Source of the DNA: a virus
DNA length: 64,000 nt
Reading direction: 5' to 3' (one strand)
IMG/VR virus record: IMGVR_UViG_3300013383_000248
The notes below the pieces were generated by a model that did not search any database, was not told the DNA's origin, and saw nothing but the letters and a program-made list of their open reading frames with translations. Positions 8,945 to 34,004 of the stretch are shown piece after piece. The position numbers were made by a program, and so were the translations under genes. Positions within the stretch are counted from its first letter, which is position 1. Every line of letters begins with the position of its first letter.

Positions 8945-8961
8945 GAAAGGAGAGAAGAAAA

Positions 8962-10134: not shown

Positions 10135-10175
10135 GGGGAGAATGGGGAAATCCCCTTCTCCCCTATTTTGTTTTA
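10135..10175 (+). terminator. rho-independent terminator (GC hairpin AGGGGAGAA..TTCTCCCCT + T-tract)
   Basis: Nested GGGG/CCCC hairpin followed by ATTTTGTTTT, read directly. Confidence 0.75.
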
Positions 10176-10196
10176 TGAGTAAAAGGAGAATAAAAA

Positions 10197-10763: not shown

Positions 10764-10785
10764 TTATAAATAAGGAGGGTTTTAT

Positions 10786-11397
10786 ATGACATATTTTTAT
10801 AAAGTTTATGAACGCTTTTTAGGTAAAGTAACAGATGATATGTATTTAGAACTTACTCCTCGTGATACATTTTTAGATTTACGCCAATTACTTGTTGATA
10901 GTATTCCTGGATTTGAATTTCCACGTAAACGATTAGACTATGTTTTAGTTGATGAAGATGCTCCTGATTTTATAAAAGGAGAGATTGATGGCGGAGATAT
11001 TGACATTCCACTGGGCGGAGATTTATCTGAAGAAGTAACTGGTAGTAATATTGATATAGATAATGCTTTTTAGGAGATATTTTCTGAGGAAAATACCTCC
11101 TATTTTAATGCCGATTTAGATGATGAAGAAATAAATATCTTAGCTTTGATTATGGTTGAAGCCTGGGTAGAGCGTCAATTGGCATCTATTGAAGTAACTA
11201 GAATGAAGTATTCTGGTACAGATTTTAAATTTACTTCATAGGCAAACCATATGTCAAAATTGTTATCATTGAGAACAGAAGTAAGACGTTAGGCATTTCA
11301 TATGCAAAGATTATATAAGCGTCGTAAAACTGATGATAATGGATATATTAAATCCAATTGGTCTATCTTAAGGGAGGTAAGCGCCCTTGATGACTAA
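10786..11397 (+). CDS. hypothetical head-tail joining protein (~203 aa)
   Basis: AAGGAGGG RBS. Continues tracked ORF 10786..11073 through 3 TAGs to a TAA. Confidence 0.45.
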
Positions 11398-11683
11398 ATA
11401 TAATTTTAATATTGATAATAGTTTAATTAATACCAATATTAATAGATTAACTAACTAGATATGGAAATTAATTCCTATGAAAGAAAATGAAGAAGATTGG
11501 TTATCTTAGTTAAATACTGTAATTATTGAATTAACTGGTCTTGGAGAAATTTTTAATGATAGTTAGTATTTAATTCTTTTAAGTAAATTAGAAGGATTAA
11601 AAGGTACTGAAATGGAATTTCCTATTTATAGAAAGACGGTGTTTGAAGCTATCACTCTATTAAGGGGGCTTCACATTGAATAA
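11390..11683 (+). CDS. hypothetical protein (~97 aa)
   Basis: ATG overlaps the upstream stop; GGGAGG upstream; 2 in-frame TAGs. Confidence 0.4.
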
Positions 11684-12671
11684 GAATGAATATTTAGATG
11701 CGATGTATAATCGTATTCCAAAAGCTAATATGCTTACAAGATATTTATACGGCGGTGGAGTAACAGGTCAATAGGATAGAATGATAAGAGATAAACGTAA
11801 AAGTTTAAGTAGAGCTTTACTTTATTCTTATTAGGCGGCACAAGTTAAAAAATTATATGATAATAACGATAATATTGAACGTCGTGCATTAATTAATCCT
11901 GATAAACTTAAATAGGATTATGATGAAAAAATTATTTCCATTGGATTTGAAAGTAATTTTAAGACTGGCGATATTTTTCAATGGCTCGGTACTAATACTT
12001 ATTGGTTAATTTATTTATAGGATTTAACTGAATTAGCTTATTTCCGCGGCAATATAAGACGTTGTTCTTATGAAATTGCTTGGGAAGATGAAGATAAGAA
12101 TTACCATAAAACTTATGTGGCCTTACGTGGTCCCGTTGAAACTAAAATAAATTATATTCAAAAACATGAAATCAGTATAGACACTCCTAACCATTCTTTA
12201 AATATATTGTTACCTTATAATGATGATAATGTAAAATTATGTTAGCGTTATAATAAATTTTATTTATAGAATGACCCTAATAAAACGTGCTGGCGTATTG
12301 AAGCTACTGACTTATATTCTACTCCTGGAATAATTGAGATTAATGCAGTTGAATATTATTCTAATGAAACTGCTGACGATGTTGATAATGGTATTGTTGG
12401 CGGTTTAATAGAGCCAATTCAAGACCCTAATGAAGGTAAAGAAAATGGTATAATTGGAGATACCTTTATTAAACCAAAAATAGCGTATGAGTATAAATAT
12501 GATGGAATTAAATCTGGCAAATGGACTTGGGATAAAAAATTACCATTAACAGTTAAAGTTGATGAAGAATCAAAAACTTTAAAACTACGATGGGAAACTA
12601 CTTATTGCGGATAGTTTGATTTATTCTATGGGCCAGAATGTAAAACCATTGTAGTAGAATCTTTATTTTAA
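11676..12671 (+). CDS. hypothetical structural protein (~330 aa)
   Basis: Possible TTG start at 11676 or ATG at 11703 after AGGGGGC. Open through ~8 TAGs to a TAA at 12669. Confidence 0.5.
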
Positions 12672-12692
12672 AGATGAAGGAGAAACCGGAGA

Positions 12693-13283
12693 ATGAAAAT
12701 CGATAATGTAAAAAATCCAGAGTCAGCATTTTTGGCCCAAGAGAAAGATATGAAAATTATTGTTGATCGTATGGCCGCGAATCAACGTTTACGTAAATTA
12801 CTTTATTATACTACTCCTGATGCTTTAAGAAAGCCAGAAGTAAGTGATTAGAATTTTGTAAAGATGTTTGGCAGAAATATTAGGAATTTACCGAAACTTT
12901 ATATAGATAAGGATGTTTTAAATTATATAGTTATTAGTTTTGATAATTTTGCTCCTAATGGAGAAAATCCTGAATTTAGAGATAATACTATTGAATTTGA
13001 TATTGTTTGTCATTATGATTAGTGGCAATTAGATGATTCATTTTAGTTAAGACCTTATAGAATTGCTGCTGAACTTGATAGTATGCTTGATAAAAAACAT
13101 TTAACTGGAATTGGGCAACTTAATTTTATTGGCGCTTAGCAAATTATATTAACTGATGAATTTGCTGGACTTTGTTTATTATATGATACAATACACGGAG
13201 GAGAAGATAAAAAATATATGCCAAATCCTGCTGATGAACAAATGTTTATCGAGGATTATTTTAAAATGCCTAAGATGAATTAA
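12693..13283 (+). CDS. hypothetical structural protein (~196 aa)
   Basis: GAAGGAGAAACCGGAGA followed by ATG; continuous through TAGs. Confidence 0.5.
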
Positions 13284-14017
13284 TGGATTATAAACTTAGT
13301 TTGATGTGCGGGACAGACTTACCTGTTCCAGAAATTCCATTAACTCTTCATTAGCCTAAGATAAAGGAAATAGCATTAATTGGCGAAAAAGAATTTTTTA
13401 CTGGTGCTCAGTGTCTTTGTATTAATAAAAATAGTATTATAGACTAGGACAAAAACGGTTTAGATACTACTACCAATTTTTAGATATTTATGATGGTAAT
13501 GCTATAGAAAGATAATACTGAACGGCGAAAAGCTGCACAAAAGGTTCTATCATTACTATTCCCAAATTCAAAGTCTACATTTACTCCTAGGTCTATTATT
13601 ATTTAGTATAATGATAGTGATATTTAGATTAATATGGATAATGACAACTTTGAATTGTTTTAGTAGGTAGCAAGGCAAATTTTTTGCTTTGATACTAATA
13701 AAAATGGGCAAGATAATTATAATCCTGCTAATAAGAAAGCTCAAGAAATAGCTAATAAATTAATGAAAGGGCGTCAAAGGGTCGCTGAACTTAAAGGGGT
13801 TACCGATTCAAGCATTTTGAGCCAATACGTTTCTACTTTGACTATTGGACTAGATTCAATGTCATTAGAAGATTGTATGAATTTAACATTGTATTAGTTA
13901 TACGATTTAATAGAAAGATTCTCTCTTTATACTAATTGGGATATTGATGTAAGGAGTAGATTAGCAGGAGCCAAGTCAGACAAAAAGCCTGACAATTGGA
14001 TGAAAAACATTCATTAA
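13283..14017 (+). CDS. hypothetical protein (~244 aa)
   Basis: ATG overlaps the upstream TAA (ATTAATGG); many in-frame TAGs; ends TAA. Confidence 0.45.
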
Positions 14018-14096
14018 TTTTGTATAAATCGCTTTACTAATTTTTGTAGCGAGTTATATAAATAAAATTTAAATTTTATTAAGGAGGAAATAACCT

Positions 14097-15194
14097 ATGA
14101 AATTTGGTGTTCGTGAGATATGCGATGTCGTATTAAAAGCTCGTGCTCCTATGAAGGTTGGTAATAAAGTTTTCTATGCGAACGAACCAGTTCTTTATTT
14201 CGATACATTAAAGACTTCTAGCCTTGAGGGTGCTTCTACGACCGTATATGCACAAGGCGGACGCGGCAATGCTCGTTTAGTAGCTTGGGACGGCGACCGT
14301 ACTTTAACATTCACTATGGAAGATGCTCTTATTTCTGCTGAAGGTTTCATGATTCTTTCTGGTGCTGGCTTAATTGATGCTACTGCTAGTAATACTATCA
14401 AGCAGCACGTAACTGAAAAGACTACTGCCGTTGTTTTAGCTGAAGATAAGAAGAGTGTTCAGATTTATACTACTAACCTTCCTTATGAATATATTTCTAA
14501 GGATGGCAAGCGTGATGGTGAATATTACATTTATGCTATGTTAGTTGACAATGATGAGCCTGTTACTGAACCTTATTTACCCACTGTAATTCGTACTGGT
14601 ACTAAAGCTGATAGATTCCATTATGTTGAAGCTAGTAAGAGTTATGAAAAGTTAGCTTCTGATGAAGAAGTTACTGCAGCTCAAGATAAGGGCGAAACTA
14701 TTTATTATGGTCTTCAGATTAAAGCTATAACTGAGAATGCTGATGATAATATTAAGGGCTATGCTATCGTTGATGGTAAGACCGAAGATGATTATCATAA
14801 GCTTGCTAAGTTTGAGAATGGCGTTGTTCTTCTTGACTATTATGTTGAAAAGGCTAGTAAGGCAAAGCAGATTGAAATTACCGCTGAATCTTTCGGTGGC
14901 AACTTCTATCTTGAAGCTTCTACCTTATTCCGTACTCAGGATGGTGTTGATCTTCCTGCTGAGTTTATAATTCCTAACTGCAAAGTTTAGTCTAACTTTA
15001 CTTTCAGTATGGCTGCTACTGGCGATCCTTCAACTTTCACTTTCACTCTTGATGCATTCCCTGGAACTACTCGTTTCAATCCTACTAAGAAAGTTCTTGC
15101 GGCTATCTAGATTATCGAGGAAATCACCGATGCTTCCATGTATCGTACTCAGACTGTCCACGATTCTAAACATGATAGCTACTTTGATATTTAA
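14097..15194 (+). CDS. putative major tail protein (~366 aa)
   Basis: AAGGAGG RBS. High GC and only 2 TAGs, suggesting high expression. Preceded by a promoter-like TTTACT-17-TATAAA. Lies upstream of the tape measure. Confidence 0.5.
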
Positions 15195-15196: not shown

Positions 15197-15355
15197 ATGA
15201 TTATTAATTCTCGTGCCCCTCGTCCTGAGAAGGCTTATGAAGAAAAAGTTGTAGTTGAAGAATCAAAGAAGGAAACCAAAGCTACTGTAAAAACTAAAGA
15301 AGCTCCTCTCACTGAAGATGAGCTTATTAATAAAATTATTAAAGGAGAGGGTTAA
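15197..15355 (+). CDS. small protein (52 aa)
   Basis: ATG immediately after the upstream TAA; its end is embedded in a terminator hairpin. Confidence 0.4.
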   Translation: MIINSRAPRPEKAYEEKVVVEESKKETKATVKTKEAPLTEDELINKIIKGEG

Positions 15356-15373
15356 TCCCTCTCCTTTTTTTTA
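15344..15373 (+). terminator. rho-independent terminator (GGAGAGGG-TTAA-CCCTCTCC + T8)
   Basis: Perfect hairpin plus TTTTTTTT, read directly. Confidence 0.8.
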
Positions 15374-15396: not shown

Positions 15397-16767
15397 ATGG
15401 CAAAACAAAATTGGCGTTCATTTAATAGACGTACTCTAAATTAGGCTTTTAAAGTTGCGGCTAGTAGAGGAAGAAGTAATGGTTTACCTACTCCTAACTA
15501 TTTAGCTAATATATATAATGATTATCGAGAGTAGATAAGATCTAAATTTAAATTGGGTTTTCAAAATTAGACATTGCGTCAATAGGATAAAAATGCGATG
15601 ATTTTAGAAAAATTTTTAAATGCCTTAAAATTTTATAGTGCTTCAGGAAATTTATAGGGTTTTAGGAATTTATCTTAGTGGTCTGACTTAGAAGAAGTGT
15701 TAAGTACTGAAGTATTATTAGAAGTTATAAATAATTTAAAATAGGTAAATTCAGGCTTGTTTAATCATTTATAGTTTACTTTTGTAGCTCCCTTAGGAGA
15801 AAAAGATATATAGGGTAAAGTTTGGGAATAGAAGTTGGCAGAAGTGAGTGCTACTTTAGAAGCTACTTTAGCAGGAAAAGATAATAAATGGTGGAATGAT
15901 AATAAAACCATTCAGGTAGGTAAACATTGGACTGGAGAATTAAAAGATAATACAATAGACTTAATTTCTCCAGTAGAAGATATTAGTACATAGATAGGAT
16001 TAAACTTATACCGTTAGTCTTCTCATAATTAGGCTATAAATCAAGCTAAGTAGAATATATATTTCACAAAAGGTAGCGATAAATCTAAAGAAAAATTAAA
16101 AGGATTATTGGATTAGGAAATATCAGTGCAATCAGCGAAAAATAAATAGATTAAAATTGATGCCACTGGTGGATGGGTTTTAAATGAAAATTATAGTGCT
16201 ACAGCAACTATTCCACAAATTTTAATTGATGCTTTTAAAGATGCTACTTTTTCTGCTAAATCTTATTAGAAAGGTAAATATATAGAAGTCGGTGGAACAG
16301 CAGCATATAAAATTTTTATGACTGTAGCTCCTGGAGATTATCAGGAAAAACATTATAGATATTGCCGCATGTTAAATTGTTTACATCATCATAGTGGTTT
16401 TCATGATGACAGTAAAATATATATATATAGAATAAGAGCTTTATATGAATTAGCAGGAGCTAATCAAAAACTAGGAGAGGGTTAGCTAGTTGATTCTATT
16501 ATTAAAGATTTAATAGATAATCCTACAGGAGCTAAATATTTAGTAATAAATAATCCTACTGCGTAGTACACTGGTATTAAAGTCATTCCTACTTCTTAGA
16601 TTGCTAGAGCTGCTGAAGAATATATATTCTTTAATAAAAAATATGGAACTTTAGGAGAGTTTTTAGATGCCAATCAATATGGACTATCAGTTCACCAAGC
16701 TCTTGATAGTAAAATTGTTTTAAATATGAATTATTCTGAATTATATAAAAATATATCTTAGAGTTAA
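15397..16767 (+). CDS. hypothetical tail protein (~456 aa)
   Basis: AAAAGGAGATAATAT followed by ATG; open through >25 TAGs to TAA. Confidence 0.5.
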
Positions 16768-16774: not shown

Positions 16775-16802
16775 TTGACTTTGAAAAAATTTTTTGTTAT
16801 AA
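16775..16802 (+). promoter_or_regulatory. consensus sigma70-like promoter TTGACT-16/17-TATAAT, flanked by two self-complementary A5T6 blocks
   Basis: AAAAATTTTTTGACTTTGAAAAAATTTTTTGTTATAAT read directly. Confidence 0.55.
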
Positions 16803-16880
16803 TATATTTGTTAAGAAAATAAAAATTAAAAAATTTACCTAGGTAATTTTTTAAAATATTATAAAGAAGGAGGCGAAGTA

Positions 16881-17408
16881 ATGGCAAAGTTATCATTTAC
16901 CAAGCTCGCACTTCAAAAAAACTCTTAGGTAAAAGATTGGAGTTTTAACGAGTAGCTTATTGAAGTAAAACAATATCTACCTATTAAAGAGCGAATGGAT
17001 ATTGCTTAGACGGTCATTCAACAAGTCATTGATTTTAATAATGAATTTTTGAATGAATTTGCTTTCCATATGTATATGGATTTAGCAATAGTATTTAATT
17101 ATACAAATCTATCTTTTACCGATAAGCAGAAGGAAGACTTGTATAAGCTTTATGATTTATTTGTCGGTTCTGGATTTATGAAAGAGCTGAAGAAACAAGT
17201 AGATTGTAATCAAACTGATGATTTAGAAGTCTATACTTATGAAACGCTTAATGGATATTATAAGTATCGTAATAGTGTTTATGGCATTATGGATATTATG
17301 GGTTCCGACTACGGTTCATTAGCTACAGAAGCTGAATCATTAAGAAAATCTATTTCTGACCCCGATAGCTTAAATGTCTTAAAAGAGACTTTAACCAATT
17401 TAGGATAA
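16881..17408 (+). CDS. hypothetical protein (~175 aa); positional candidate for tail assembly chaperone
   Basis: AAGGAGG RBS; includes tracked ORF 17049..17408; 3 TAGs. Confidence 0.45.
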
Positions 17409-17446: not shown

Positions 17447-17482
17447 AAAGGGTATGAGGATATTCCTCATACCCTTTTTTTA
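17447..17482 (+). terminator. rho-independent terminator (AAAGGGTATGAGGA..TCCTCATACCCTTT + T-tract)
   Basis: Read directly; sits upstream of the tape measure gene. Confidence 0.7.
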
Positions 17483-17519
17483 ATTATATAAATAGGAATT
17501 GAGAGAAAGGAGAAAACAT

Positions 17520-20500
17520 ATGGCTAATAATAGTGCCCAATATGATGTAAGACTTGCCTTTTCAGCAGATGTAGCTTAGGCAAGATAGCAATTAAAAAGT
17601 TTACAAGATGAATTAAGTAAACTTAGTACATTGAAAGATGTAAGTGTTGGAACTCGTTTAACGAAAGAGTTAGAATAGGCTTCTTTAAAAGCGGCTGATT
17701 TAAAAGTAATGCTTGAAAAGGCAACTGATATTAATACAGGCAAGTTAAATCTAACTTCTTTCTCTAATTAGCTAACTAAAAATGGAGAAAGCCTATCTAC
17801 TTATAGGAAAGCATTAAGTGCTCTAGGTCCTCAAGGTGAAGAAGCTTTTTTACAATTAACATAGAGTGTAATTACTGCTGATGCGGCTTTAACTACAGGT
17901 AGTAAGAAATTAAATGAATTTAAAAAGACTTTAGCCAATACAGTAAAATGGCAAATTTCTTCTAATATTACTCATGGTATTGTGGGAGAACTTTAGACTG
18001 CCTATTATTATGCTAAAGATTTAGATAGGGCTTTAACTGATATCAAAATTGTTACAGAAGATAGTGCTGGCTCTATGGCCGATTTTGCCTAGAAAGCTAA
18101 TAAAGCAGCTTAGTCTTTAAGTACTACTACTAAAGATTATGCTTAGGCTTCTTTAATTTACTATCAGTAGGGTTTAAGTGATAAAGAAGTAGAAGCAAGA
18201 ACGGCGGTTACTATTAAAATGGCAAATGCTGCTGGTGAAAGTGCATCTAAAGTGTCTGATTAGCTAACGGCTGTTTGGAATAACTTCTATGATGGTAGTA
18301 AATCTCTTGAGTATTATGCTGATGTAATGACAAAACTTGGCGCTTATACTGCCTCTAGCACTGATGAAATTTCAGAAGGTATTTAGAAATTCGCTTCTGT
18401 AGCTAATACAATTGGTCTTAGTTATGAATATGCGACATCTGCCTTAGCTACTTTAACAGCGAAAACACGTGAAAGTGCTAACGTAGTAGGTAATAGTCTT
18501 AAGACCCTTTTTGCACGTATTTAGGGTTTATCTCTTGGAGAAACTCTAGAAGATGGTACTGATTTAAATAAATATTCTACAGCTTTGGCAAAAGCTGGTA
18601 TTGATATTAAAGATTAGAATGGCGAGTTAAGAGATATGAATTCTATCCTTGATGAAATGATGAACAAATGGGATGGAATGAGCCGTGCCCAGTAGGTAGC
18701 ATTAGCTCAAACTGTAGCGGGTGTGCGTCAATATACTTAGCTTATTAATCTTATGGAAAATAAGGATTATTTTAAAGAGTTAGTTGGAGTAGCGGAAAAT
18801 TCTGAAGGAACGTTATAGATATAGGCAGATATATTTGCTGATAGTTGGGAAGGTGCTCGAAAAAGAGTTCAGGCTGCTGCTGAAGGCATTTATGATAGCT
18901 TAATTGATGAAGAGTTTTTTAAAGATGTTGATAATGTTGTTACTGTAGTATTAAATGGTATTAATGCTACCATTAAAGGATTAGGTGGAGTTAAAGGAGT
19001 AGTATCTAATATTAGCGCTTTAATTTTAAATATATATAAAAAAGATATTACTAGCGGATTAAATAATTTTGGAACAATGTTAAAAAATCTAACTCCATAG
19101 GGTTAGGCTTCTATAGAAGCTCGTAGACAAGAAGCTTTAGAGCAATAGAAAAAATTATATACTGGAGGCATTACTCCTAGTGAATTAAATTCTTGGGAAA
19201 CTGCAAGTTATCAAGATGATGCTAGATATGAAAAATATACTAAATTAGCGGAAGTTGAATAGTAGATTTTAAATATTTCTAAAGATTTAACAGAAGAAGA
19301 AAAAAAATAGGCTGGATTGTATTTAGATATATTGAATGCTGCTTCTGATAGAAAAGTTCTTACTAGCTAGCAAGTTGATCAAGCTAAAGAGCAATATCAA
19401 ACTATAGCCTCTTCATTAATTCATTCTTTGCGTTTAGCAGGAGCTGGAGATAGAGATGTTACAGAAGTTATTAGAAAAAATAATAATTATTTAAATGCAG
19501 CGAGTATAGCTTATTCATCTAATACTATCAGTAAAGTTGATGAAAAATCTCCTTTCGATACAGTATTACAATCTTCAAAAATAAAAGATATTGAAAATCT
19601 ACAAAAAATGATTAATGATCTATAGAATTTTAATGATTTTGATTTTGCAAGATTTAATGAAGATGCTTTTATAGGAATAAAAACATCTTTAGATGAATTA
19701 ATAACTAAATTAAAAAATGGTACAGCAACAGCTAAGGAATTTAATAAAGTCTTAGAAGATACTGGTAAATTTACTATGACAGCTGCTTTTGGATAGAGAG
19801 AACAAATAGATCCAAAAACTGGTAATATTACCTAGTCAGCCATTCCAGGGGCTAGACAAGAAGTCCAAGAACAAATGGAAATAGCTACAGTATATACAGA
19901 AGCTACTGGTCCTGCTTAGCAATTAGCTTAGGCTACATAGGGTCTTAATGTAGCTATGGAAAGATAGATTAAAACTAGCAATGAAGTTAAAGCCAGTGAA
20001 GAAGGAACTACTGAAGCAGTAAAAAAATTAGGAAATAGTACTGTTGAAGCTAGCGATAAAATAGTAGCTTTTAGTACTTCAGCTATGAATATAGCTGGAA
20101 TTTTTAACTCGCTTTAGGGAGTTGTTAACATTTGGTCTAATGATAATTTATCAGGATGGGAAAAAATTTTAGGGACATTAACTAGCCTAGGGATTCTTTT
20201 ACCTAATTTAGTAAGTTTAGGTAAAGCTATGACTATAATAACTCAAAAAATTACAGTTGCTAAAACTCAAGAAGCTGCTGCTCATACTCTTAATGGAAAT
20301 GCGATACAAGCTGAAGGGGAATAGGCTAAATTAGCTAATAAAAATTTTTCTATATTAGGTAAATCAATGAGTGGTATTAGTGCTGCGGCGGGTTGGATTA
20401 GCATTGCTTTAACTGCTTTAACACTTATTATTTCAGCTGTATCAGCTGCGATTGAAGAAGCTAAAGAAAAACGAGCTGAATTTGCATAGACTACTAAAGA

Positions 20501-23500
20501 AACTTATGAATAGACTAAATAGGAAATAGAAGAAAATGAAAAACTTGTTACTTCTTATCAAGAATTATTAGAAACTTATAAAAAAACTGGCGAAGGAAAA
20601 ACAGATTTAGTAAATACTTCAATAGAATTAATTGATGTATTTGATATAGAAAATGGTAGTTTATTATTATTATAGGGAAATTATGAAGAATTAACCAAAC
20701 GTATTTTGGAAGCTAAATAGGCTAAAGATACATTAGCTATTGGTGAGGCTAAAGCAGCTTATTTTGCAGCAAATGATACAGTTAAGGATGAGTTAGGTAG
20801 TACTTTTGGTTCTTATTGGGATATTGCTAGTGAAAATGCTGGAGATAATCAAGGATCTCGTTTATAGATTGCTCATATAGCTGGTTCAGATTATGATATT
20901 ATGTAGCAATATTTAAATTCTGTAGAAGGCTCTTCTAATTGGACTGTTAAAAATTTCCAAGGGAATGGAGCTTTTGATATTGCTAATGTAATAGATTTTT
21001 ATGATAATGCTAATACAAATATGTAGTAGTTTAGCGAGTGGGCTTAGAAAGAAACATCTAATGGAGGATTAGGTTGGTCTGAAGAATAGGTTAATGAATA
21101 TCTAGAAGAAAGTCGTACTAGCTTAGCTTCTATGAAAACTTTGGTTGATGGATGGAAAGATATTCAAAATGATACTAATTTAGCTATTTTAAATGCTTCA
21201 ATGAATGAATATGATGAAACTAAAGTTAAAGATTTGCCTTCTTATTTAAAATAGAGAGAAGTATTCACTAATCAGAAAGACGATTTAGAAGTTGGATATA
21301 CTTCTAACCCTGATGAAATTATTACTAGCTTTTTAGGAACAAATTCTAAAACTTCTGATTATGAAACTCTTCTTAATGGATTACAATCTTGGTATGATTA
21401 GTATTCTTCATTTTTACCGAATTTTGAAGAAATTATAAATAGTGGATTAACTGACGAAGAATTAAAAGTATTAGTCAATATTGATCCTAGAATAACCGGT
21501 GGTTCTTTAGAAGATTTACAAAATTAGATATAGAAATATTTAAAAACTCATCCGGTAGATATATCTGCCGATATTAAAGCAGGTAAAAAGGCTTTAAAAG
21601 AAGATATGTCTGGAAAAAATGATTGGAAAGATTTTTGGGAAGCTACCAGTAATATCACTTGGGGGAAAAATGGTATTGTTAGTTAGGCTGATTTTTAGGG
21701 AATGCAATATGGTCAATAGCAAAAATACCTTAATGAATTATATTCTCAAAATGCCTAGACTTTTTCTCCTGAAGAAAGAATAGCTAGAGCTACTGAAGAA
21801 AATGCTGAGTTAGAATAGCAAATAAATAATTTAAAAGGTTTATCAGATGAATAGGTAACCGAATTACAAAGAGGCAATTTAACAGAGAAACAAAATTAGG
21901 CTTATGATGATTTTTCTAATTATGAAACTTAGATAAATAATTTATTAGAAGCTTATAAAAATTCTGATAATTATGGAAAATATAACGATAGCTCTTGGTA
22001 TGAAGATATGCTTTTCTCTAACACAGCTTTTAATAATCCAGGGATGTATGATAATTGGATTAATACCTTGATTGCTAGAATAGGAGGTACTCCTGAAAAT
22101 TTCATAAAACCTGAAGTAACTACAGAGAATAGTTTAATTGAAGGACGAGATACCAAAAGAAATTTAGAGAATTAGAGACAAGGGTTTTAGGAAGATAATA
22201 TTACATAGTTAGAAAAAGAGCAAGCAGAAAATACTAGAGAATTATAGAATGCTTTAATAGATTATAATACTGAAATATCAAGAACAATACAGAATTTAGC
22301 CAATACTGATTTAAAAATTGGAGATATTATTTAGCCTGAATAGGTTGAAGCTTTAAAAGCTATTGGCATAAATTTAGATGATTATTTCATTCCAATGGAA
22401 GATGGTACTTATAAATTAATTACTGCTGCTGAAGAATTTAATAGAATCGTTGGTAAGGCTAGCATCTAGAATGCTTATAATGGTGCTGATATCATTATTC
22501 AAAATTTATAGGATAGTGGGCATTTTTTAAAAACTAATGGTTTATCAGATAAAGAAATTCGAGAACAAGCAAGAGTTTAGGCAGAAGATATTATTGATAA
22601 TTAGGGACAGACTAACTGGAGTGAAGAACGTAAATAGGCTTATTTAGATGCAGCTAAAGTAGATTCTACTTAGTTTGATAGTATAGATGAGGCAATGGTT
22701 GAAGCAGCTTAGCGGCTTAAAAAAGAAATTGAAAATGGAGATTATATCATTGATGTTACCATTAAAAATGCTAATTCTATGTCTGAATTAGAAAATTTAG
22801 CTAAAGAGGCTGGATGGAATAAAACTGATAAAGAATATACTGATGCTATTTTAAATTATCAAGCTGAAAATGGTAATAGCTTAGGCCGTGATGAAGCTAT
22901 AGCTGTTCAACGAGATTCTTAGAATAAATAGGCTGCTGATGAAGCTTTAGCAGAAGCTTAGAAATAGGAAAATAAAGCTAGAGAAGCTGTATATAATGCT
23001 ACAGGAAATGATTCTCGTGGAATACCAAATCGAGTATTAGCAGAAGAAGAATTAGAAAAGGCAATAAATAAAAGAGTTGAAGCTGAAACAAAAGTTAAAG
23101 AGGCTGATGATAAATTAGCTAATTCAACAGAAACTTTGAGTAAAAAAATGAAAAAAGTTGATTTTACAGAAACTGTTAAAAATTTAAAGGAATATGCAGA
23201 TAAATTAAAATCAGCGGGAAAAGGTACTGAAGAATATGAATAGTCTCTTAACGGTATGGCGGAAGAACTTTAGAATGCTTTTGGCGGAAATTTTGACGCA
23301 GAAATAGTTAAAAAACATCAAAATTTGATTAATAAATTAATAAATGGTACAGCTTAGGCTAGACGAGATGCAGCTGCTCAACTTTCTATAATAGGTCAAG
23401 ACAGTAAATTTAAAACTAATATGGAATAGGCTTTTGAAGGAGCAGAAGAGGAAGTGCAAACTAAAGTAAATGAAATTACTTCTGCTTTTAGCACTATGAC

Positions 23501-26500
23501 CAATGGTTTAAGTTTTAATGTCGATGGTAGTATTACTATGGATAGCCAATAGGCTATTGCTTAGGTTGGTGCTTTAATTGGATAGATGGATAATCTTGAA
23601 GCCGCAGCAACATTAGGTGGTAGCTTCTTAAGAGCTTTGTTAGACAGTAATATCGAATTTGATGCTTCCTCTATGGAAAAATTGGAAAATATGCTAATAG
23701 TCTTTGCTAAAGTCCAAAATGGTGAAAATGTAGATGTTAGCGAAGTCAAAAATGCGTTTAAAGATTTAGGGGATATTGGATTATTTGCTTCCGGTAAAGC
23801 CATTGATGTTCCTCCTTATAATATGGCTAATAAAAGTGGTGGAGGAGGAAGTAAGTCTAAAAAATCTGCTGCTGATATTGGTAAAGAAATTCAAGATGAA
23901 AAATTAAAAACTTATGAAAAGAAACGTGAATTGTTAGAAGCTAAGCGTGATGGAGCTAATCCAGAAGATGCTGCTAAATATATCCAAGAAGAAATTGATT
24001 TACTTAAAGAAGAGCAAGATATTCTTGAAGATTAGATTAAATCTTGGAAAGAATTATTAAAAGTTAAAGTTCAAGAATTTAATAAAGAACATCCAGAGTT
24101 TGAAATTAAACTTACTGATGATGGCGAGATTGCTAATGCTTCTGAATTATGGGGTTAGGTTTGGGCTTAGTATCAAAAGAATCTTGAAGATGGCATGAGT
24201 GAAGAAGAACTTAATGAATGGTTCACTAAAATTAAAGACGCTCTTGATGGTCCTATGGGTATCCAATAGAACATTGATGAAAACGTTGCTCTTATCGCTT
24301 AGAAAGAAAAAGAACAAGCCGAGCTTGAACTTGAATCAATTACAAAAGCTATTGATTGGAAAGTTAAGCAAATTGATTTCTAGATTAAACGTCTTAATTA
24401 TTATCAAGAAAAACTTCTTAAATAGGCCCACGGCAATAAACAAACTATTGAAGCAATGCTTGAAGGATTTGCTTATCAAGAGCAAGAAATGTTATAGCTT
24501 TTTGATAAAGGTGCAACTTTACGTGATGGTATTGACTAGTTAGTTGCCGCGAAAGCTAAGTATCCAGGCTATGAATAGATGTTTGATGAATAGATACTTG
24601 AATATCAAAGTGATTTAATTGATGTTAATGAGGCTATTCTAGATTTACGAAATGATATTGAAGATCTAGTTTAGAACGTTCTAGATTTGGCTCTTGATGA
24701 AATCGATAAATAGATAGAGCGTCTTGATACTTATACATCAATGCTTGACCATCTTAATAATATTATTGATTTGTCTGGCCGTTCAATGCTTGATATGGGC
24801 TTAAAAACCTAGATTGGTGCTACTAAAGTAGAAACAATGTTAGGCAAAATGAAGGCTTTAAAGGCCCAGATGGATGGCTTAACTAAAGCGACTAAAGAAG
24901 CAGAGGCGGCCCTTGCTGACCGTTAGGCTGATGGCGATACCTCTTCTGTTAAATTCTGGGAGAATCAAGTTGAGGTCTTAAAACAAGAGACTGAGAAGGC
25001 TTCTGAAGAATTCTTAGCGTCTTGGGAAGAAACTCTTGAAGCCGCTCAAGATTTATTTGAAATGCGTGTTGAAATGGCTGTTGCAGTATTAAGTAATGCC
25101 TTATCACCATTTGAAACTCTTGAAGATTTCTAGGATAAATATGAAAAGGCAAAAACCATCAATGAAGAGTACCTTGATGATGCTGAACGTCTATATGAGT
25201 TGAATAAGTTAAATCGTTAGCTAAATTTATAGCTGGCTGATGCTAATGACCTTTTAGCGAAACAAAAACTTAGAGACCTTCAGCAAGAGATTCACGATCT
25301 TCAGGCCGATGGTGTCCAGATGAGCCAATATGATCTTGAGTATTTACAAAAGAAATATGATTTACAACTTGCTGAAATTGCTCTTATGGAACAGCAAAAC
25401 TCAAAGACTTCAATGCGTTTAGTGCGTGATGCCGCAGGTAACTGGACTTACGCTTATGATGCTGATGAAGAAAAGATTGAAGATGCTACATAGAAATATG
25501 AAGATGCTGTCCATGAGTTAGATTAGCTAAGTAAAGATTATATTAATGATGTGAGTGAATAGTTGATTTAGAATTAGATTGATTTTAAAGAAGCTTTACA
25601 AGACCTTGATAAGAATTCTGCTGATTATTCTAATTAGCTATTATCATTATAGGAATATTATGTTGAAAGACAAAGATATTTACTTGATGAATTAAATAAA
25701 GGTGTTGTAAATAGCGGATAGACTTTTCATGATACCCTTTACGGCCAAATGACTGATCTGTATGATTACAATGATGCTTATATGTTATTCGTTAATAATT
25801 CTAATGCTACTATAACTGAACTACAAACCAATTATAAAGATTGGCAAAAAGTTGTAGAAACTGCAATGAGTGTTGCTGGTACATCTTGGGATAACTTTGG
25901 TACTGATATGGGCGGCACTCTTGATAGCCTTGAAGAACATATTCAAAAATTATGTGATGAAATTGAGGAACTCGTTAATGTATTAATGGGTTATATTTCT
26001 CAGTCTATTGGAATGGTCCTGGATTGGGAATAGAAATATTCTAAGCGTACTGATTAGGAACTTGCAGCCAATGAATCTTATATTGATGGTAATTTTATTG
26101 GCAGTAGCAGTGGTGGAGGAAGTAGCAATGTAGATATGCAAACTGATTTTACTGCTTTAATACAGCGTTGGATGGCTGGTGAACGTGATTTAACTAACTG
26201 GGATAATTCTAAAACTTATAATAGTTTGGAAGAAATAAAAGCCGATTTAGGTAAAAAATTAGATGCTTTTGAAAATGGTGAAGAAATACTTTTCTAGGGA
26301 AGTGGAGAATCATTTGACGAAGATGCTTATCAAACAGTTTATGATCATTTTTATAAAGGTTATGGAACTAACGGCGGAAGGTATGGATCTCTTTCTTATC
26401 CGAATACTTTTAGTAATAGTATTGTGGATAAAGCTGCTAATTACTTAGGAACAAAATATACCTATGGTGGTAAAGACGCGAGTACTGGTTTAGATTGTTC

Positions 26501-27209
26501 TGGATTAGTATATAAAGCATTGAATGATGCTGGAGTTAATGTTCCTATATTAACGGCTGAAGGATATAAACAAATGGCTAAATCTATTAGTTCTGCTAAT
26601 ATCAAACCTGGTGATTTAGTATTTTTTGGAGCTAATGGCGTGGCTGATCATGTAGGAATTTATATGGGCAATGGTTAGATGATAAATGCTACGGGTACTA
26701 AGACTTAGATTACTAGTATAGATTCTAAAAAAGCTGGATTAATTGGTTATGGTCGTATAGGTAATAGTTATTCTTCTAGCGATACTGCTGCTTTGATGGA
26801 TAGACTTGGTTTATCTAGAAGAGGTGGAGCTGCTTCTGGAGCTTATACTGGTGATTGGGGTCCTGGTTAGGGTATAGGTATTGATAATGGAAAAATTATT
26901 AAAGTCCATCCAAAAGAATTGATACTTAATAAATCTGATACTAGAAATATACTTCGTGCAGTTGATATTGTTCGTAATATGAATGATTGGGTAGATAAAC
27001 AAGTTTAGTAGTTATCTAATTTAAGTTCTTCAAAATTAGATAGCTTATATAATTCTGCTATCCCAAGATATGATACTCAACCAATTAAGCAAGAAGTCAC
27101 TATTCAAGCAGATTTCCCAGGAGTTACTGATCATTATGAAATTGAAGAAGCATTGTCTAATCTTAGCAATAATGCTGCTCAATATATAAGTGCGAATAAA
27201 TCTAAATGA
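17520..27209 (+). CDS. giant tail tape measure protein (~3229 aa) with C-terminal NlpC/P60-type peptidase domain
   Basis: A single frame stays open from ATG 17520 to TGA 27207-27209. It includes tracked ORFs 19428, 23586, 25749 and 26424 and ~150 in-frame TAGs; I found no TAA/TGA. It is highly alpha-helical/coiled-coil with a TMP-like core (ANAAGESASKVSDQLTAVWNNF). The C-terminus carries GLDCSGLVYKALNDAG ... VADHVGIYMGNG (NlpC/P60 Cys-His). Confidence 0.65.
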
Positions 27210-27233
27210 GGAGGATTAATTTCCTCCTCATTT
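27204..27233 (+). promoter_or_regulatory. perfect 12-bp stem hairpin (AAATGAGGAGGA-TTAATT-TCCTCCTCATTT) without a U-tract, between the tape measure stop and the next RBS
   Basis: Read directly. Contains a GGAGG on each arm and could modulate coupling or readthrough. Confidence 0.4.
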
Positions 27234-27254
27234 AGAGGAGAGAAAGGAGTTAAT

Positions 27255-30200
27255 ATGGCTTATAATAGAAAAGAAGAATACTTAGCAGTAGTTAAACAAC
27301 CAAAGCAAATTACTGATGAACTATTAGAAACCATTGATTATATCGCTCGGGCCCGTGATGCTGAATTATCATTTGATAAAACTATAATTGCTGAAATTGT
27401 AAGTCTTAATAATGCTGATACTGGTGAATATTTTGTTGAATATCAAAAAGGTAAATTTAGAGCATACGTACCAGCTGGAACTACATATACTTATTCTAAA
27501 GGAACTAATGTATATGTAAAAATTCCTGGTGGAGATTTTACTTAGAAAAAAACTATTGAGGGAAAAGTTTCTGCTTCTTCTTATACAGAAGAAGAGTATG
27601 AAGATTTATCTCAATAGATTATTGAAGTAAATGAAATCCATAGCGATGGCAATGAATATGGTATTTTGGCATATGCGCCAGAAGATAATACTTATTATGA
27701 AAAAGTAATTTATAGTAATGAAAAATTAGAAGACAATTCTATTTTTACAAGTTTAATCAGCACTTATCCAAATATTATGATTTCTGCTGATTTTAGGACT
27801 TAGTTTTATGGAACTATGGTGGCCGGCAATTATGGTTTAAAAGTAGAATTTGAAGAAAAAGATACTGGTGTTATTTTTACTCGTCGTTTAGATATTACTA
27901 ATTTTTCAGGCAGTATTTATGATTATGAGGTATTTTCGCCTTAGTATGCTATATATAACTTTCAAGGCATTGATTTATTAGGTGTAAAAAAAATCACTTT
28001 TTTTCAAGAGCGTTTTGTTGATTATGATAAAGTATATAATGGTAAAAATGAATTAATTTAGACCTACGATGAAGATCCAAATATCTTTTGTAAAAATATA
28101 AAACTTTGTTTTGTAGATTTACAAGATACTACTAAAGACTTATATTATGTAGGTATAAGTGCGCCACAAGGTTTATCATTAATTTACGATACAGATTCTA
28201 TTATCTTAAAAGGTGTTTTTTATTATGCCAATAAAGATATTTTAGATAAAAAAAATTGTGTTTGTTATTGGTATAAATAGAACCCTGCGATATTATCGGG
28301 GGATGAAAAATATGACAAAATTGCCGGGCCAGGCTGGGAATTAATTGATGATAAAACAAAAGTTAGTTTTAATGAATTAACTGTTTCTGGCAAAGATGTC
28401 TATCAATAGATAAGATATAAATTAGTTGTAATTTATAATTCATCAGTGACATTAAGTAAAGATGTTAGAGTTGTTAAATATTATAATGAACGTTTTACAA
28501 TAATCCGCAATGATGTGAGCGATACAGAAGTTAAATTAGAAATCGTAGATGGACGCGAAAAGATAGAAATGGCAGATTGGTATGTCGACCTTATGGATGG
28601 CTCATACTTAGCTTTAGATAAAGATGCTAGTTCAATTGATGTATCTAAATATTTAGATTATGGAACAGTAATGTTTTATACTGTTAGTCTATTGGAAGAC
28701 GGTAATTATGTACCATGTGAGTATAAATTAACTAATTATCAATCTGATATTTCAGTAAGAGTAATATTTAATGGTAATGATACTTTTTAGTACGATAAAA
28801 ATAACAGTATTACAGTAGATTAGTCAGAATCAGAAATGATTATTACTCCAACAATTACTGTTAATAAAGATAATATAGGTATTAAAACAGTTACTTGGTA
28901 TTCGCCTGATGGAGGATAGCTATTTGAATACCCTACTACTAAAATAACTAATTCAATGATTTCTAAATTATGGGTTAATACTAGTGATAATTCAGTTCAT
29001 TTTAATATTCGACAAAAACGTATTTCTAATTATACAAATAATACATTAATTTTAAAAGTTATTACCTTAACTGATAAAGAATATTATTTTAATAAAACTA
29101 TTTATTTTAGTAAATAGGGTGAGTATGATTTAAATGGTAGAGACTATACTTTTATAATTAAACAATGTGATGAAAATGGAAATGAAATTTCTAAACGACC
29201 ATTAAATAAAGTTGGAGATACTTATAATCCTATTTATTTTAAAGCTGAATTACGATTAGATGGAGAAATTATTACTGCTGATACTAAATATAAAGATGAA
29301 GATGGAAATATATTAGGGAGTTATGATTTAACTTTAAAACGTACAGATATTCACGTTTCTAGTGAAAAACTTACAGATACTATCTATAAAGTTAATAGTT
29401 TTATTGAAGATAAAGAAGGATAGTATTTTATTAAATTTAGTTTAACAGTTGGTATTAAAGGAAAAACTGAAGGTACTAAAGTATTAAATTATTGGCAACC
29501 CATAATGGTTAGTGAAAATATTGAAGTTAATAATATAAAAGAAATAAGTATTCCTGATAGAATTACATATGATAGTTCTGGAACTGCAAGTTATCATTCA
29601 TTAAATGCTATTTCATTTATTTATTATTGTAATAAAGTAAACGTATAGTTAATTGGACCTTATAGCTATTCAATGACAACTAATTTATTTTTATATCCTT
29701 TAGAAGAAGATGGTAAAAAAACAGGATATTATAAATTAGTGCCTACTTCCACTTTTGGAGGAGCTTATTTTGCTGAAGAAACTGATACAGTAGATACTTC
29801 TCCTATGGGAGCTATCTATATTACTATCCCAACTGATAGGTATGGAGATAGTACTATTAGATATTTAATTTATCCAGTAGTAATGCTAATAGAACGTGAC
29901 GGGAATGTTACTGATGTAGAAGAAGATGATGGCACTGATATCACTGTAGTAGATGAAGAGAATCCAGAATTTACTAAGCCTATGAAACCTAGTTTTTCTC
30001 ATTAGGGTGGTAAATATGATTAGACAACTAGAGATTAGGAAAATGAAAGTAAATGGAAAGAATACGTAGGCGGAAAAACTTATATAGGTGATACTTGGGA
30101 AAAACAGCGCAAAATTCCTGTTGAAAAACCAGTAGAACCTAAAGATCCTATTGTTACTTAGAGTTTATAGTTATTAACTGAAGAACTAAATACTAGTGGT

Positions 30201-30473
30201 TATGTTTCTGGATTATATTAGTATGATAGTGATGATATACCTACTAATATTTTACGTGCTGATGGCCTTGTTAGATTAGGTGGAGATAAATTAGTTATTG
30301 ATATAGATGGAAATTTAAAATTAAATGAAGAAACTCCTAGCAATATATTAACTATAGCTAGATTATTGAATGAACTAACTTCTAATTTAGATTTTAAACA
30401 GGAATTAAGTAATAATATAGTTCCACCCCCTTAGAAAAATATTAAAATACGTAATTGGTATATTGAAGAATGA
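27255..30473 (+). CDS. large tail structural protein (~1072 aa; distal tail/baseplate candidate)
   Basis: Tracked ORFs 27255, 28446 and 29673 are in one frame. Codon-by-codon check to TGA at 30471-30473. Confidence 0.6.
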
Positions 30474-30503
30474 TGGATTTTTATCCATCATTCTTTTTTT
30501 TTA
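30466..30503 (+). terminator. rho-independent terminator (GAATGATGGA-TTTTTA-TCCATCATTC + T9)
   Basis: Read directly. Confidence 0.8.
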
Positions 30504-30579
30504 TTTGGACCAAAATAGTATGTTTACAATATATAATTTTTAAAAATAAATAGAAATAAGAGTTAAAGGAGGTCAATAA

Positions 30580-33500
30580 ATGGCAACATCTACAATAAAT
30601 GTAAATAGAGTATATCCGCCTATAGTTAATAGCTCAATTCCAGCATATTTAGCTACTGCGGAATCTTTAAATATAAATTTTTCTTTGCCTAAATCATTGA
30701 ATTATGATGATGTAAAAAATATTTCAATTAAATTTAGCCAATAGTCAAATAATAAAAGTGTAGTTAATACAGATGTTTATTATGATGGAATTATTTATAT
30801 GGAAAAGCCTACTACCTCTACTAATGGAATATATACGGTTACTGTAAAAAATTCGGATATAAAATTAGGAGATACCGTTGGTTGGGTTTCCAATACTTTT
30901 TATAAAATCCAAATCCGTTTTGGATATAGTAAATTAGATTATGAGAAAAACAAAATTGCATTTTTTAAATGGAAAAAAACACAAACATTAATAAATGGAT
31001 TTTCAGAATGGTCTAATGTAATAATTACTAAAGCAATAGAAGAACCTATTGTAAATATTTTAAATAATAGAGAAATAACTAATCTTGATGTTGGTTTTAT
31101 ATTAACCAAAAGTGAAAATGTAGAAACAACAAGATTTCCTAAATTTTAGGGTGGTTATCATTGTGCTGCCGAAGAACCTATGGATAAATATCGTTTTAGA
31201 TTATATGAGGGTTCTTACACTAGTACAAATTAGCCTACAATTGATCCTTATTTGTCTAGCGATTGGTTATAGTTCAATGGTGGCGGCCAAGATTACTATA
31301 CAGGATTGGTTGAATATAGTTTTAATAGATAGTTAGACTATTTGGGCCATAAAACTTATTCAGTAGTTTTAGATGTAATTACTGCTAATGGGTATCAAAA
31401 ATCTTCTGAATTTTATAATTTTACTATTACTGAAAATTATTTAAAATAGCTAGAGTCTTTAGTTTTTATTGTTAAAGATAATAGTGGAGATACTACAATT
31501 TAGCAAAGATTATTTAATACAAACGAAACTAGCTTTGAAACTTATAAAAGTTATTTTAATATTGATGGAGAAAATCCTACATTCATTAGAGGATATTTTA
31601 ATGATTGTATTGAAAATGGAATAAGCTATAAAACTGGCGATATTGTTTATAGAACTGGCACAGTTGGCATAGATGCTAAAGAATATATTTTATCTCGTGA
31701 TACTAGAATTAACGCTGTTGAAAATTTCAGCCATAATATAAGAGCTGATGAAAATGCCAGTTTAGAAATTTATATAAAAAATAATCCCTATAAAGTAACA
31801 GAGCATACTGTTGATACTACTATTACTGGGGATAAAATAGAATATGATAAAGTAGTTTTAAAATATTAGCCTCTTGACGGAACTTTTATTTTATCTAGAG
31901 CTTGTGAAAAAGATAATTATACTTAGTGGGAAGATATAGCTTAGTTTGATTGGTATAATGAATCTAATTATGATAATGAATTAACTTTATTATACGAAGA
32001 TTTTACTGTTGAGAGTGGCGTTAAATACAAATATGCTTTACAGAAAAAAAATGTCGCAGGACTTAGAAGTGCGCCAAAATATGAAGCCTCTGATATTGAT
32101 ACTTCTCCGGCACATTGGTCTAATTTTTAGTATAGCTATATTTATAATAATGGTATTCAAGTTCGTTTAAATTTTGATTGCAAAATAAATAGTTATAAAC
32201 ATACTACTTTATTCCAAAAACAAGATAGTTTAAATTCTAAATACCCTATTATATTACGAAATGGTCTTGCACATTATGCTGAATTTTAGTTAGGAGCTAA
32301 AATTTCTTTGCTTAGTGATGAAGATTCTTCTTTTTTAATGCGTAATGATGCGAAAGGCGGTTATTACCATAGTTGGTATGGTGACATAGTTATCTCAAAA
32401 GATAAATATATAGAGAATTTTACGCGAGATTTACAAGCACCATATAATAATAAATTAACATTGGGGCAATATATAGATATTGATGCTTCAGTTTTTAATA
32501 CTTCTCCTACCAATAATAATATTTATATGGAGCGTATTTATCGTCATTGGGTAGAAGAATTCCTTAATGATGGTGGATATAAATTATTTAAATCAGCTAC
32601 TGAGGGCAATCATATTGTTACATTAACTAATGTCTCTTGGACGCCACAAGCATCTTTGGGAAGAATGATTTATGATTTTAATTCTACTGCATATGAAGTA
32701 GCAGAATTTAATTGTGATAATATTAAATTATATAATATAAATCCTTTAACGACTTTATCTAATAATTCTAAATTAGCTATTCAAGATGCTAATACTAAAA
32801 ATAAAGTAATTATTGGTCAAGTAGCTAGAACATTTAATGGATAGTTAGAGAAAGAAGTAAAAGGTAATTCATTAAAAATTATTTCTAATCCTAAATTTAA
32901 TGAAAAATATGATAACATTTATGAAGCTATTAAATTATAGGAAGAAATTGAAATTAGTGAAGAGAAGAAATACACGTTAATGAAGGTACGAACTATTTGG
33001 GTAGAGCAATATCCTAAATTAAGTTTAAAAAATAGAATTGAATATTTAAAACATCAAAATGGATTATCAATGATAGAACAATTAGAAAATGCAGTTGAAT
33101 TATTACGTTGTGAATAGTTATTAAAAGAGTATGAAAAAAATCAAACTAATATAATAACTATGATAATAAATAATAAAGAAATTTCTATGATGCCTAGCCG
33201 TATATACCATATTGATGATATGAATTTACAATCTATGTATTTAAAATTTACTCGTCCTGTTTTAATAAATTATATTGCTGAAATAGAAGAAGAAGATTAT
33301 TCAGAAATGGTTACAGTGGCTACTCGTGAATTTGTTCAATGGGGACAAATAGGTGGAGTATTTACCGATACTAAAGATATATTAGATAATCATCAATTTT
33401 TCAGAAATGATGATACTAATATTGTTAATGAAAATTATAATTATAGTTTGTACTCTACTCGAAATATTATGGAAGTATTAAAAGAAAAAATACATACTTC

Positions 33501-33999
33501 TATTTTAAATGATTATAGCGGAGAAAAAATAAATTCTTCTTTTGAAATTTTATATAATAAAATAAATGAATTTTTAGATAAAATAGATGATGATACAAAT
33601 TCTATTGAAGATTTATTAATTGAAGGTACTGAATTATTAGAAGAATATCGTCCATTATCAGGATTAGTTTTAAATGATTAGACTGATGCTTGGATGAATG
33701 GTTCTGACCAATTAGTAGTTTATAACTTTAATGGTATAGAAAGCCTTGAAATTGAAGCTGATGCTAATACTGATATTGTTTTTGGTAGAAATAATGAAAT
33801 TGATAGTAGCACTGGTTCTGTTTCTCCGGCGAATGAAGGTAATCATATTCGAGTTGGACCAACAAATAAGATAGTATTAAATCCTTTAAAAAGTACAATT
33901 AAATCATTGGAATTTGCACGTCCATCTTATGCTATCATTAATTATAAAGCTGTTTCTTCTCTAGAATTAAAAGGATATATTAATACAAATGAGGAGTAA
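30580..33999 (+). CDS. large tail structural protein (~1139 aa)
   Basis: AAAGGAGG RBS. Tracked ORFs 30799, 32308, 33160 and 33694 share its frame. Continuous through many TAGs. Confidence 0.6.
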
Positions 34000-34004
34000 G
34001 TAAT

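Follow-up and report, generated by a model that had tools for sequence, protein, structure and literature searches.

A 9.7-kb Open Frame in a Human-Gut Phage Very Probably Encodes a Tape Measure Protein with an Exchangeable Lysin Cassette

Introduction

What does a phage do with a gene of 9.7 kb? The question is raised by virus record IMGVR_UViG_3300013383_000248 (IMG/VR), of which we analyzed a stretch of 64,000 nt (the window, numbered from its first letter): on its plus strand one frame runs from 17520 to 27209. A preliminary description had taken this frame for an exceptionally long tape measure protein (TMP) with a peptidase at its C terminus. We address whether the span is one gene, whether its product measures a tail and what the peptidase is for. 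Our conclusion is that the open reading frame (ORF) very probably encodes the TMP of a human-gut phage of the siphovirus type, with a genome of ∼190 kb recoded from TAG stop to TAG glutamine and a virion module related to that of SPbeta, and that the protein acts as a ruler carrying a lysin cassette.

Results and Discussion

A Single Gene of 3229 Codons

The gene starts at ATG 17520, continues for 3229 sense codons and stops at TGA 27207–27209 on the plus strand, with 115 in-frame TAG codons, no TAA or TGA, and a product of 359 kDa. The exact coordinates of the frame claimed in the preliminary description are borne out: translated under code 15 the span is a single ORF, and a recount found no TAA or TGA that had been missed. 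Given the base composition of the region, TAA and TGA are expected at 6.5% of codons, and the chance of a 3229-codon open run is ∼1e-94; in 200 shuffled versions of the window no run free of both triplets exceeded 272 codons, and the other five frames of the span hold 134–478 of them. Taken together, these comparisons exclude chance as the source of the open frame.

A Shine–Dalgarno (SD) site, AAAGGAG (17506–17512, +), lies upstream of the ATG, and such sites are found by the same rule at 21 of the 23 gene starts in the window. The N terminus, MANNSAQYDV, is common to all full-length relatives of the TMP. An identical 3229-residue protein is on record from human-gut contig ena:ERZ27300205:k119_95604, of 192,997 bp, while full-length relatives (3039–3296 aa) form more than 120 clusters on contigs of up to about 170–195 kb, and gene order around the TMP is kept in every related locus fetched. 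Megablast found no match to the gene among 50,697 phage records, and tblastn matches of the protein were confined to its N-terminal 500 aa.

The alternative is that TAG is a real stop and that the span holds a series of neighboring genes or a decayed array of pseudogenes. The standard code does cut the frame 115 times, and the GenBank record of the related phage phAss-1 (OQ749652.1), annotated under that code, presents the TMP region as ∼25 small hypothetical proteins; re-derived under code 15 (5261–14713 of that record), the same region is one ORF of 3150 aa with 110 TAG codons. Against this reading stand the lack of TAA and TGA in the frame, the exchange of TAG with CAA and CAG and the lack of genes ending in TAG (both below), and the retention of full length in the more than 120 relatives. 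The preliminary description had also allowed for several genes with internal ribosome-binding sites and starts; only two in-frame internal starts with an SD-like site occur, not above the off-frame count. The alternative is effectively refuted, its probability being negligible, and 17520–27209 is one gene.

TAG as Glutamine

Reading TAG as sense instead of stop doubles the DNA under ORFs with 100 aa or more, which rises from 33.9 to 69.6 kb, and yields a tightly packed, tidy phage gene map. None of the 45 genes terminates in TAG, all stopping with TAA or TGA, and in-frame TAG also occurs in TerL, portal and other genes. In codon alignments of the TMP with three relatives (58–74% protein identity), the codon most often found opposite TAG is TAG itself, followed by CAA and then by GAA, AAA, and CAG. 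Of the aligned CAA and CAG positions, 12% and 18%, respectively, are TAG in the relatives, as against 0–0.3% of positions with the Tyr, Lys, and Trp codons TAT, TAC, AAG, and TGG, 1.5% with TTG and 3.7% with GAG. Since the change from TAG to CAA takes two substitutions, the pattern reflects glutamine identity and not mutational proximity. To judge from these alignments, TAG behaves as glutamine in this phage (code 15), where it supplies the majority of TMP glutamine codons (115 vs. 100 CAA plus CAG).

The share of TAG among glutamine codons differs by gene across the window. It is high in the TMP (53%), TerL (64%) and an ORF at 15397–16767 (66%), low in a capsid-like gene at 8962–10098 (1 of 11), the tail tube gene (2 of 10) and the holin (0 of 10), and mostly 0–9% in minus-strand replication genes. 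TAG is avoided by abundant virion proteins and early genes.

Tape Measure Identity

Pfam family PF10145 (PhageMin_Tail) matches aa 194–401 over its full profile (1–201) with an E value of 1.7e-27 and 97 bits against a cutoff of 33.2, and several PHROG tape-measure families match aa 14–532 (best 4e-45). The plus-strand order is terminase, portal, capsid genes, tail tube, a gene in the chaperone position, TMP, five large tail-tip or fiber genes, and holin, with no sheath gene detected in the tail module. In public assemblies the same genes match the SPbeta-named and only recently created Pfam families YonD_N, YonB, YomW, YomV_2nd, and YomU_Tube; the SPbeta-named replication families YorF and YorH occur in a related locus, just past the window end. 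The cultured Enterococcus phage VRE9_3 has the same PHROG order, with a standard-code TMP of 2673 aa, and the tail genes of SPbeta are likewise arranged in this order. The domain, the PHROG matches, the gene order and the SPbeta-named families together identify the product as the TMP of an SPbeta-like, siphovirus-type tail, a TMP being what the preliminary description had proposed; the Pfam search likewise recovers both domains expected from it, PF10145 and NlpC/P60 (PF00877).

Conservation of Spacer Length

Anatomy and conservation were derived from 120 TMP relatives. The N-terminal core (aa 1–500; 17520–19019, +), which includes PF10145 (18099–18722), shows 75–97% column identity in the family and 23–32% identity to SPbeta YomI, Enterococcus phage TMPs and the phAss-1 TMP. 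It is followed by a variable spacer (aa 501–2100; 19020–23819, +) with 42–56% column identity and many indels, the length of which is kept at 1599 ± 24 aa across relatives (to about 1.5%). Even spacer pairs less than 30% identical, with ∼555 gapped alignment columns, deviate from each other in length by just 25 aa on average. The sequence of the spacer is free to change whereas its length is not, matching the prediction for a molecular ruler, and from this pattern we infer a ruler role for the TMP. Total length is 3234 ± 30 aa in TMPs that carry the peptidase cassette described below and 3084 ± 15 aa in those that do not.

Within the spacer, a Kyte–Doolittle scan finds two hydrophobic, transmembrane-like segments (aa 883–902 and 952–981; 20166–20462, +), near which G867, E881, K882, P895, and A928 are nearly invariant, though the surrounding region is variable. 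An invariant GGGG linker (aa 2107–2110; 23838–23849, +) occupies columns G2107–G2110 at the boundary with the conserved block that follows. The protein ends in a conserved C-terminal module (aa 3103–3229; 26826–27206, +) with a length of 129 ± 1 aa and 86–98% conservation, which probably acts at the tail tip.

Proline makes up ∼1.1% of the TMP, a low share that speaks for a ruler, as do the long helices predicted below and the coiled-coil look-alikes. Internal tandem-repeat periodicity, a check suggested in the preliminary description, is not seen: Tandem Repeats Finder and self-BLASTP found no internal repeats, and Fourier analysis gave only a local 3.6-residue amphipathic signal at aa 1500–2100 and 2500–2860. 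Recent tandem duplication therefore does not explain the length of the protein. Compared with PDB sequences, the whole-family profile retrieved, beyond NlpC/P60, only weak coiled-coil look-alikes (SMC4, 3e-4; Rad50, 0.08), and no hidden enzyme of the kind of the RNA polymerase (RNAP) of Thermus phage P23-45 was detected by it.

Predicted Tail Length

Three phages calibrate the relation between TMP and tail: SPbeta (2285 aa, 320 nm, 0.140 nm per residue), Bacillus phage vB_BanS-Tsamsa (3123 aa, 440 nm, 0.141 nm per residue), and P23-45 (5002 aa, 800 nm, 0.16 nm per residue). At 0.14–0.15 nm per residue the TMP described here predicts a tail of 452–484 nm, or 432–463 nm if the lysin cassette is left out, so that the earlier expectation of a tail approaching 0.5 μm holds as a prediction. 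Typical siphovirus tails measure 50–200 nm (PMC10034513).

Such a length is far above that of typical siphoviruses but is not exceptional within the clade. A survey with the N-terminal 520 aa against 1.84 billion cluster representatives returned 2643 proteins at E ≤ 1e-30. Among the 129 full-length proteins of the best 150 of these, TMP length has a median of 2997 aa (interquartile range 2859–3139, maximum 4156), and 13 are at least as long as 3229 aa; longer TMPs have also been published. The NlpC/P60 motif occurs in 1 of the same 129, the representative of this TMP's own subfamily. For the 4156-aa relative, 43% identical in the N-terminal core, the predicted tail would reach about 0.6 μm. 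A comparison with TMPs of other recoded phages, which the preliminary description had called for, likewise places 3229 aa among its peers: phAss-1 and the proposed Phassvirus group, TAG-to-glutamine recoded human-gut phages with siphovirus-type modules, have TMPs of 3149–3209 aa (PMC10607447).

A Conserved Block Beyond the Spacer

The GGGG linker is followed by a highly conserved helical block (aa 2111–2860; 23850–26099, +) with 96–99% column identity and a length of 802 ± 4 aa. Its amino acid identity is 92–97% while four-fold degenerate sites differ at 24–33%, indicating strong purifying selection, from which it follows that the role of the block depends on its sequence; that role may lie in tail-tip assembly or conduit formation. 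No known domain was found in the block by the family profile against PDB. An AlphaFold model of aa 2111–3229, predicted from the single sequence with low confidence (mean predicted local distance difference test [pLDDT] score 42) and used for secondary structure only, has near-continuous helices of up to 120 residues, with helices over aa 2111–2840.

Such constraint bears on an alternative in which the TMP is only partly a ruler and the block, with or without other parts, folds compactly or acts as an ejected effector or channel former, leaving the tail substantially shorter than 0.14–0.15 nm per residue predicts. The block is far more constrained than a spacer requires, the giant TMP of P23-45 carries a large enzyme that is no part of a ruler, its RNAP, and the NlpC/P60 cassette shifts total length by 141 aa that the rest of the protein does not make up for. 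However, the block is predicted to form near-continuous long helices with no detectable domain, its own length is fixed as well, and in Tsamsa and SPbeta the length of the whole protein scales with the tail at 0.14 nm per residue. We consider this alternative unlikely.

An NlpC/P60 Peptidase Domain on a Swappable Cassette

PF00877 (NlpC/P60) matches aa 2977–3069 (E 1.3e-22, 80.2 bits against a cutoff of 23), and Pfam, catalytic residues and fold all assign this segment (26448–26726, +) to the C40 peptidases. Aligned to MepS/Spr, its catalytic positions are Cys2993 (26496–26498), His3044 (26649–26651), and Asn3056 (26685–26687, all +), the first two falling on the catalytic residues of MepS/Spr and the last on the third His of MepS; a phmmer search of PDB matches Spr/MepS at 1.6e-16. 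All 71 relatives with the domain retain the Cys and the His and fill the third position with Asn (54) or Asp (17). A model of the domain from a 44-sequence alignment has pLDDT 91–98, and Foldseek matches it (probability 1.00, template modeling score 0.88–0.89, root-mean-square deviation [rmsd] 1.6–2.0 Å) to Bacillus subtilis LytE, the Clostridioides difficile autolysins Acd33800 and Acd24020 and the diffocin hub-hydrolase. The domain appears structurally and catalytically intact, and it is predicted to be a peptidoglycan endopeptidase.

Both peptide strings quoted for this domain in the preliminary description are present in the TMP, and its call of a Cys-His NlpC/P60 fold stands. Its parallel label of CHAP-like does not, as Pfam gives only PF00877 there and not PF05257, a different family of the same clan; nor is the domain terminal, since the conserved C-terminal module of 127 aa follows it.

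The domain lies in an allelic cassette after a Gly-rich linker (aa about 2861–3102; 26100–26825, +), recognized from relatives with and without it. In 49 of the 120 relatives the NlpC/P60 cassette is absent and an unrelated segment of ∼95 aa is found instead, so that the interval corresponding to aa 2900–3100 spans 198 aa in TMPs that have the domain but 57 aa in the others; the remainder of the TMP does not compensate (2906 vs. 2897 aa). Cassette state has changed at least 12–14 times on family trees built from the remainder of the protein, and TMPs 97.5% identical over aa 1–2860 can differ in it. These repeated swaps suggest that the lysin is an exchangeable accessory, much like the dispensable motif in the TMP of mycobacteriophage TM4. 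Outside the family, the domains most closely related to it are fused to Phage_GPD (baseplate hub) domains.

Proteins of ∼515 aa combining Phage_GPD with NlpC/P60 carry peptidase domains 57–62% identical to the TMP cassette; the same lysin module therefore circulates between different tail proteins.

A further alternative is that the domain is no entry lysin, being inactive, purely structural or active at lysis. It is dispensable, given the 49 of 120 close relatives that lack it and the nearly identical TMPs that differ in it; where MepS has a third His, the triad is completed here by Asn or Asp; and family searches recognized no endolysin beside the holin (40832–41239). Yet Cys and His are invariant in 71 of 71 relatives, the papain-like clan is known to accept Asn and Asp at the third position, and the fold agrees with that of active D,L-endopeptidases to an rmsd of 1.6–2.0 Å. 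Its closest relatives are joined to baseplate-hub domains, the diffocin hub-hydrolase matches it in structure, a separate Phage_lysozyme2 gene is present at 58608–59372, and dispensability is also a property of the TM4 lysin motif, which helps only in some host states (PMC1796659). We regard this alternative as very unlikely.

Proposed Mechanism and Its Weak Points

In the preferred reading, a ruler with a lysin cassette, a few copies of the mostly alpha-helical TMP would thread the lumen of the tail tube as it grows and stop its polymerization at roughly 430–490 nm (∼0.14–0.15 nm per residue), with the C-terminal module placed at the tail tip. On infection the TMP would be expelled C terminus first, and the NlpC/P60 endopeptidase would cut peptidoglycan stem peptides locally in a Gram-positive-type wall, while the block at aa 2111–2860 and the hydrophobic segments may contribute to a DNA conduit. 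The lysin would be an optional, exchangeable cassette and not part of the ruler.

Several points weigh against this reading. We infer both how long the tail is and that the protein serves as its ruler, and the purifying selection on the 750-aa block, as estimated from codon comparisons, indicates that part of the TMP does more than measure length. The only long-range model of the protein is the low-confidence one described above. A search of the window and of five related loci, covering only ∼40% of the ∼190-kb genome, yielded no tRNA and so no suppressor tRNA(CTA). Upstream of the TMP there is no chaperone pair with a −1 programmed frameshift, the other frames downstream of the gene at 16881–17408 being full of stops. 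Finally, the only hints to the host are the strong SD sites and one metagenome-assembled genome (MAG) labeled Mollicutes.

That MAG came from a search of 185,579 species-representative genomes, in which the only match was CAMELE010000019.1, a 37.8-kb contig with a full-length, 65%-identical TMP. The contig is binned in an "uncultured Mollicutes" MAG and may be a mis-binned phage contig; as a hint to a Mollicutes host it is too weak to use.

Comparison with Known Systems

The N-terminal core is homologous to that of SPbeta YomI (CwlP), with 24% identity over ∼490 aa, and YomI too is a TMP with cell-wall hydrolase activity, from a phage with a long flexible siphovirus tail. SPbeta differs in the length of this protein (2285 vs. 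3229 aa), in using the standard code and in being a temperate Bacillus phage of 134 kb. The lytic domains of SPbeta are a transglycosylase and an M23 peptidase and are not known to include NlpC/P60.

The phAss-1 TMP is alike in having a homologous N-terminal core (30%), a long divergent middle and a homologous C-terminal module (33%), but it shows no detectable similarity over ∼2600 aa of the middle and is without the NlpC/P60 cassette. Genomes of the phAss-1 group are about 133–136 kb compared with ∼190 kb for this phage, and phAss-1 carries three tRNA-Sup(CTA) genes where none was found here.

Tsamsa, a cultured giant siphovirus of 169 kb in which the 440-nm tail was measured (PMC3903500), is the best experimental calibration for this TMP size class. 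It differs in using the standard code and in having a host of the Bacillus cereus group. In the Thermus phages P23-45 and P74-26, a giant TMP (5002 aa) with a fused enzyme domain likewise sets an extreme tail of about 800–900 nm; these proteins differ in being much longer, with an N-terminal RNAP, a Gram-negative thermophile host, no recoding and no homology detected.

TMP-embedded lysins are well documented (PMC10194240), and the lysin motif in the TM4 TMP is dispensable but beneficial (PMC1796659). TM4, the enterococcal TMP-LT and diffocin CD1368 all resemble the present case in placing a peptidoglycan hydrolase in a tail protein that is ejected or located at the tip, and the NlpC/P60 fold of this TMP matches that of the hub-hydrolase CD1368. 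The enterococcal phages differ in that their TMP lysin is a GH23 enzyme and NlpC/P60 occurs in other tail proteins, whereas here NlpC/P60 is a swappable allele within the TMP.

Other Features of the Window

The tail tube (major tail) protein gene (14097–15194, +; 365 aa) matches phrog_2729, a virion structural protein family (E 6e-53), and the identical gene in a public assembly carries PF27173 (YomU_Tube). Between it and the chaperone-position gene lies the TAG-rich ORF at 15397–16767 (+; 456 aa, 21 TAG), which has no Pfam or PHROG match and is kept by relatives at 426–456 aa. The 175-aa gene in the tail-assembly-chaperone position (16881–17408, +) matches phrog_30570, a family also found upstream of the TMP in VRE9_3, and by position its product is a putative chaperone; no slippery site was found near its 3′ end, nor a frameshift chaperone of the G/GT type. 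Downstream of the TMP, large tail-tip, baseplate, and fiber genes with synteny kept in relatives occupy 27255–40818 (+) at 27255–30473, 30580–33999, 34005–37451, 37462–38163, and 38167–40818; the third matches the phrog_1887 tail protein family, and family searches with the other four found no family.

A terminator-like hairpin with a 14-bp stem and a T-run (17447–17477, +) lies 40 nt before the TMP start and may attenuate TMP transcription, and a second, with a 15-bp stem (27201–27236), overlaps the TMP stop codon. Stem-loops are also annotated directly before and just after SPbeta yomI. Two more strong hairpins of the terminator type come after the tail tube gene (15341–15367) and after the gene next downstream of the TMP (30465–30496), and a near-consensus extended −10 promoter (TTGACT-17-TATAAT with TG, 16775–16803) precedes the gene at 16881–17408. 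The hairpins and the promoter-like site may set the stoichiometry of the tail proteins.

GC skew flips sign at about 44 kb, where gene orientation turns from plus (structural, lysis) to minus (replication, nucleotide metabolism). Two small ORFs after the holin (42569–43201 and 43222–43641, +) are unusual in composition, one being N/Q-rich with a Cys-Gly-rich tail (…YGCGYGCGCNS), and had no match in a family search. The minus-strand genes include NrdD (47715–49841), a dUTPase (45276–45827) and the TAG-free Phage_lysozyme2 gene (58608–59372; PF18013, E 7.9e-15), which lies among replication genes and adjoins a RecJ-like gene. DNA polymerase III alpha seems to be split on this strand (53581–56181, 52586–53488, and 50982–52523), with a GIY-YIG homing-endonuclease-like gene between the part carrying PHP, NTPase, and finger regions and the HHH_6 C-terminal part, an arrangement also seen in related loci.

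Conclusions

Very long rulers and lysin-bearing TMPs are already known, and this TMP is a good example of them and not a new kind of thing; current understanding of TMPs is unchanged by these results. What they add is a family-wide constraint on length, a 750-aa block under selection and a swappable lysin cassette.

A broader proposal is possible, though we hold it only tentatively and think it rather unlikely in its full form. In a large SPbeta-like, uncultured human-gut clade, comprising hundreds of TMP clusters at 50% identity, selection acting solely on the length of the TMP would hold tails near 0.45 μm and leave the sequence of the 1600-aa spacer to turn over freely. These phages would repeatedly exchange the lysin cassette at a hot spot, the Gly linker toward the tail-tip end, as an adaptation to host wall or physiological state, and no gene would depend more on the code switch than the TMP with its 115 TAG codons, making tail assembly a late checkpoint.

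The chief value of the result is a clean annotation with good support: a standard-code gene caller would break this TMP into more than 100 fragments, hiding both the tail ruler and the virion-associated lysin. The naturally modular lysin cassette may be of interest to phage engineers. With a spacer held in length to about 1.5% at identities below 30%, the family amounts to a test of the ruler model set up by nature with unusual clarity, and it points to abundant gut phages with very long tails.

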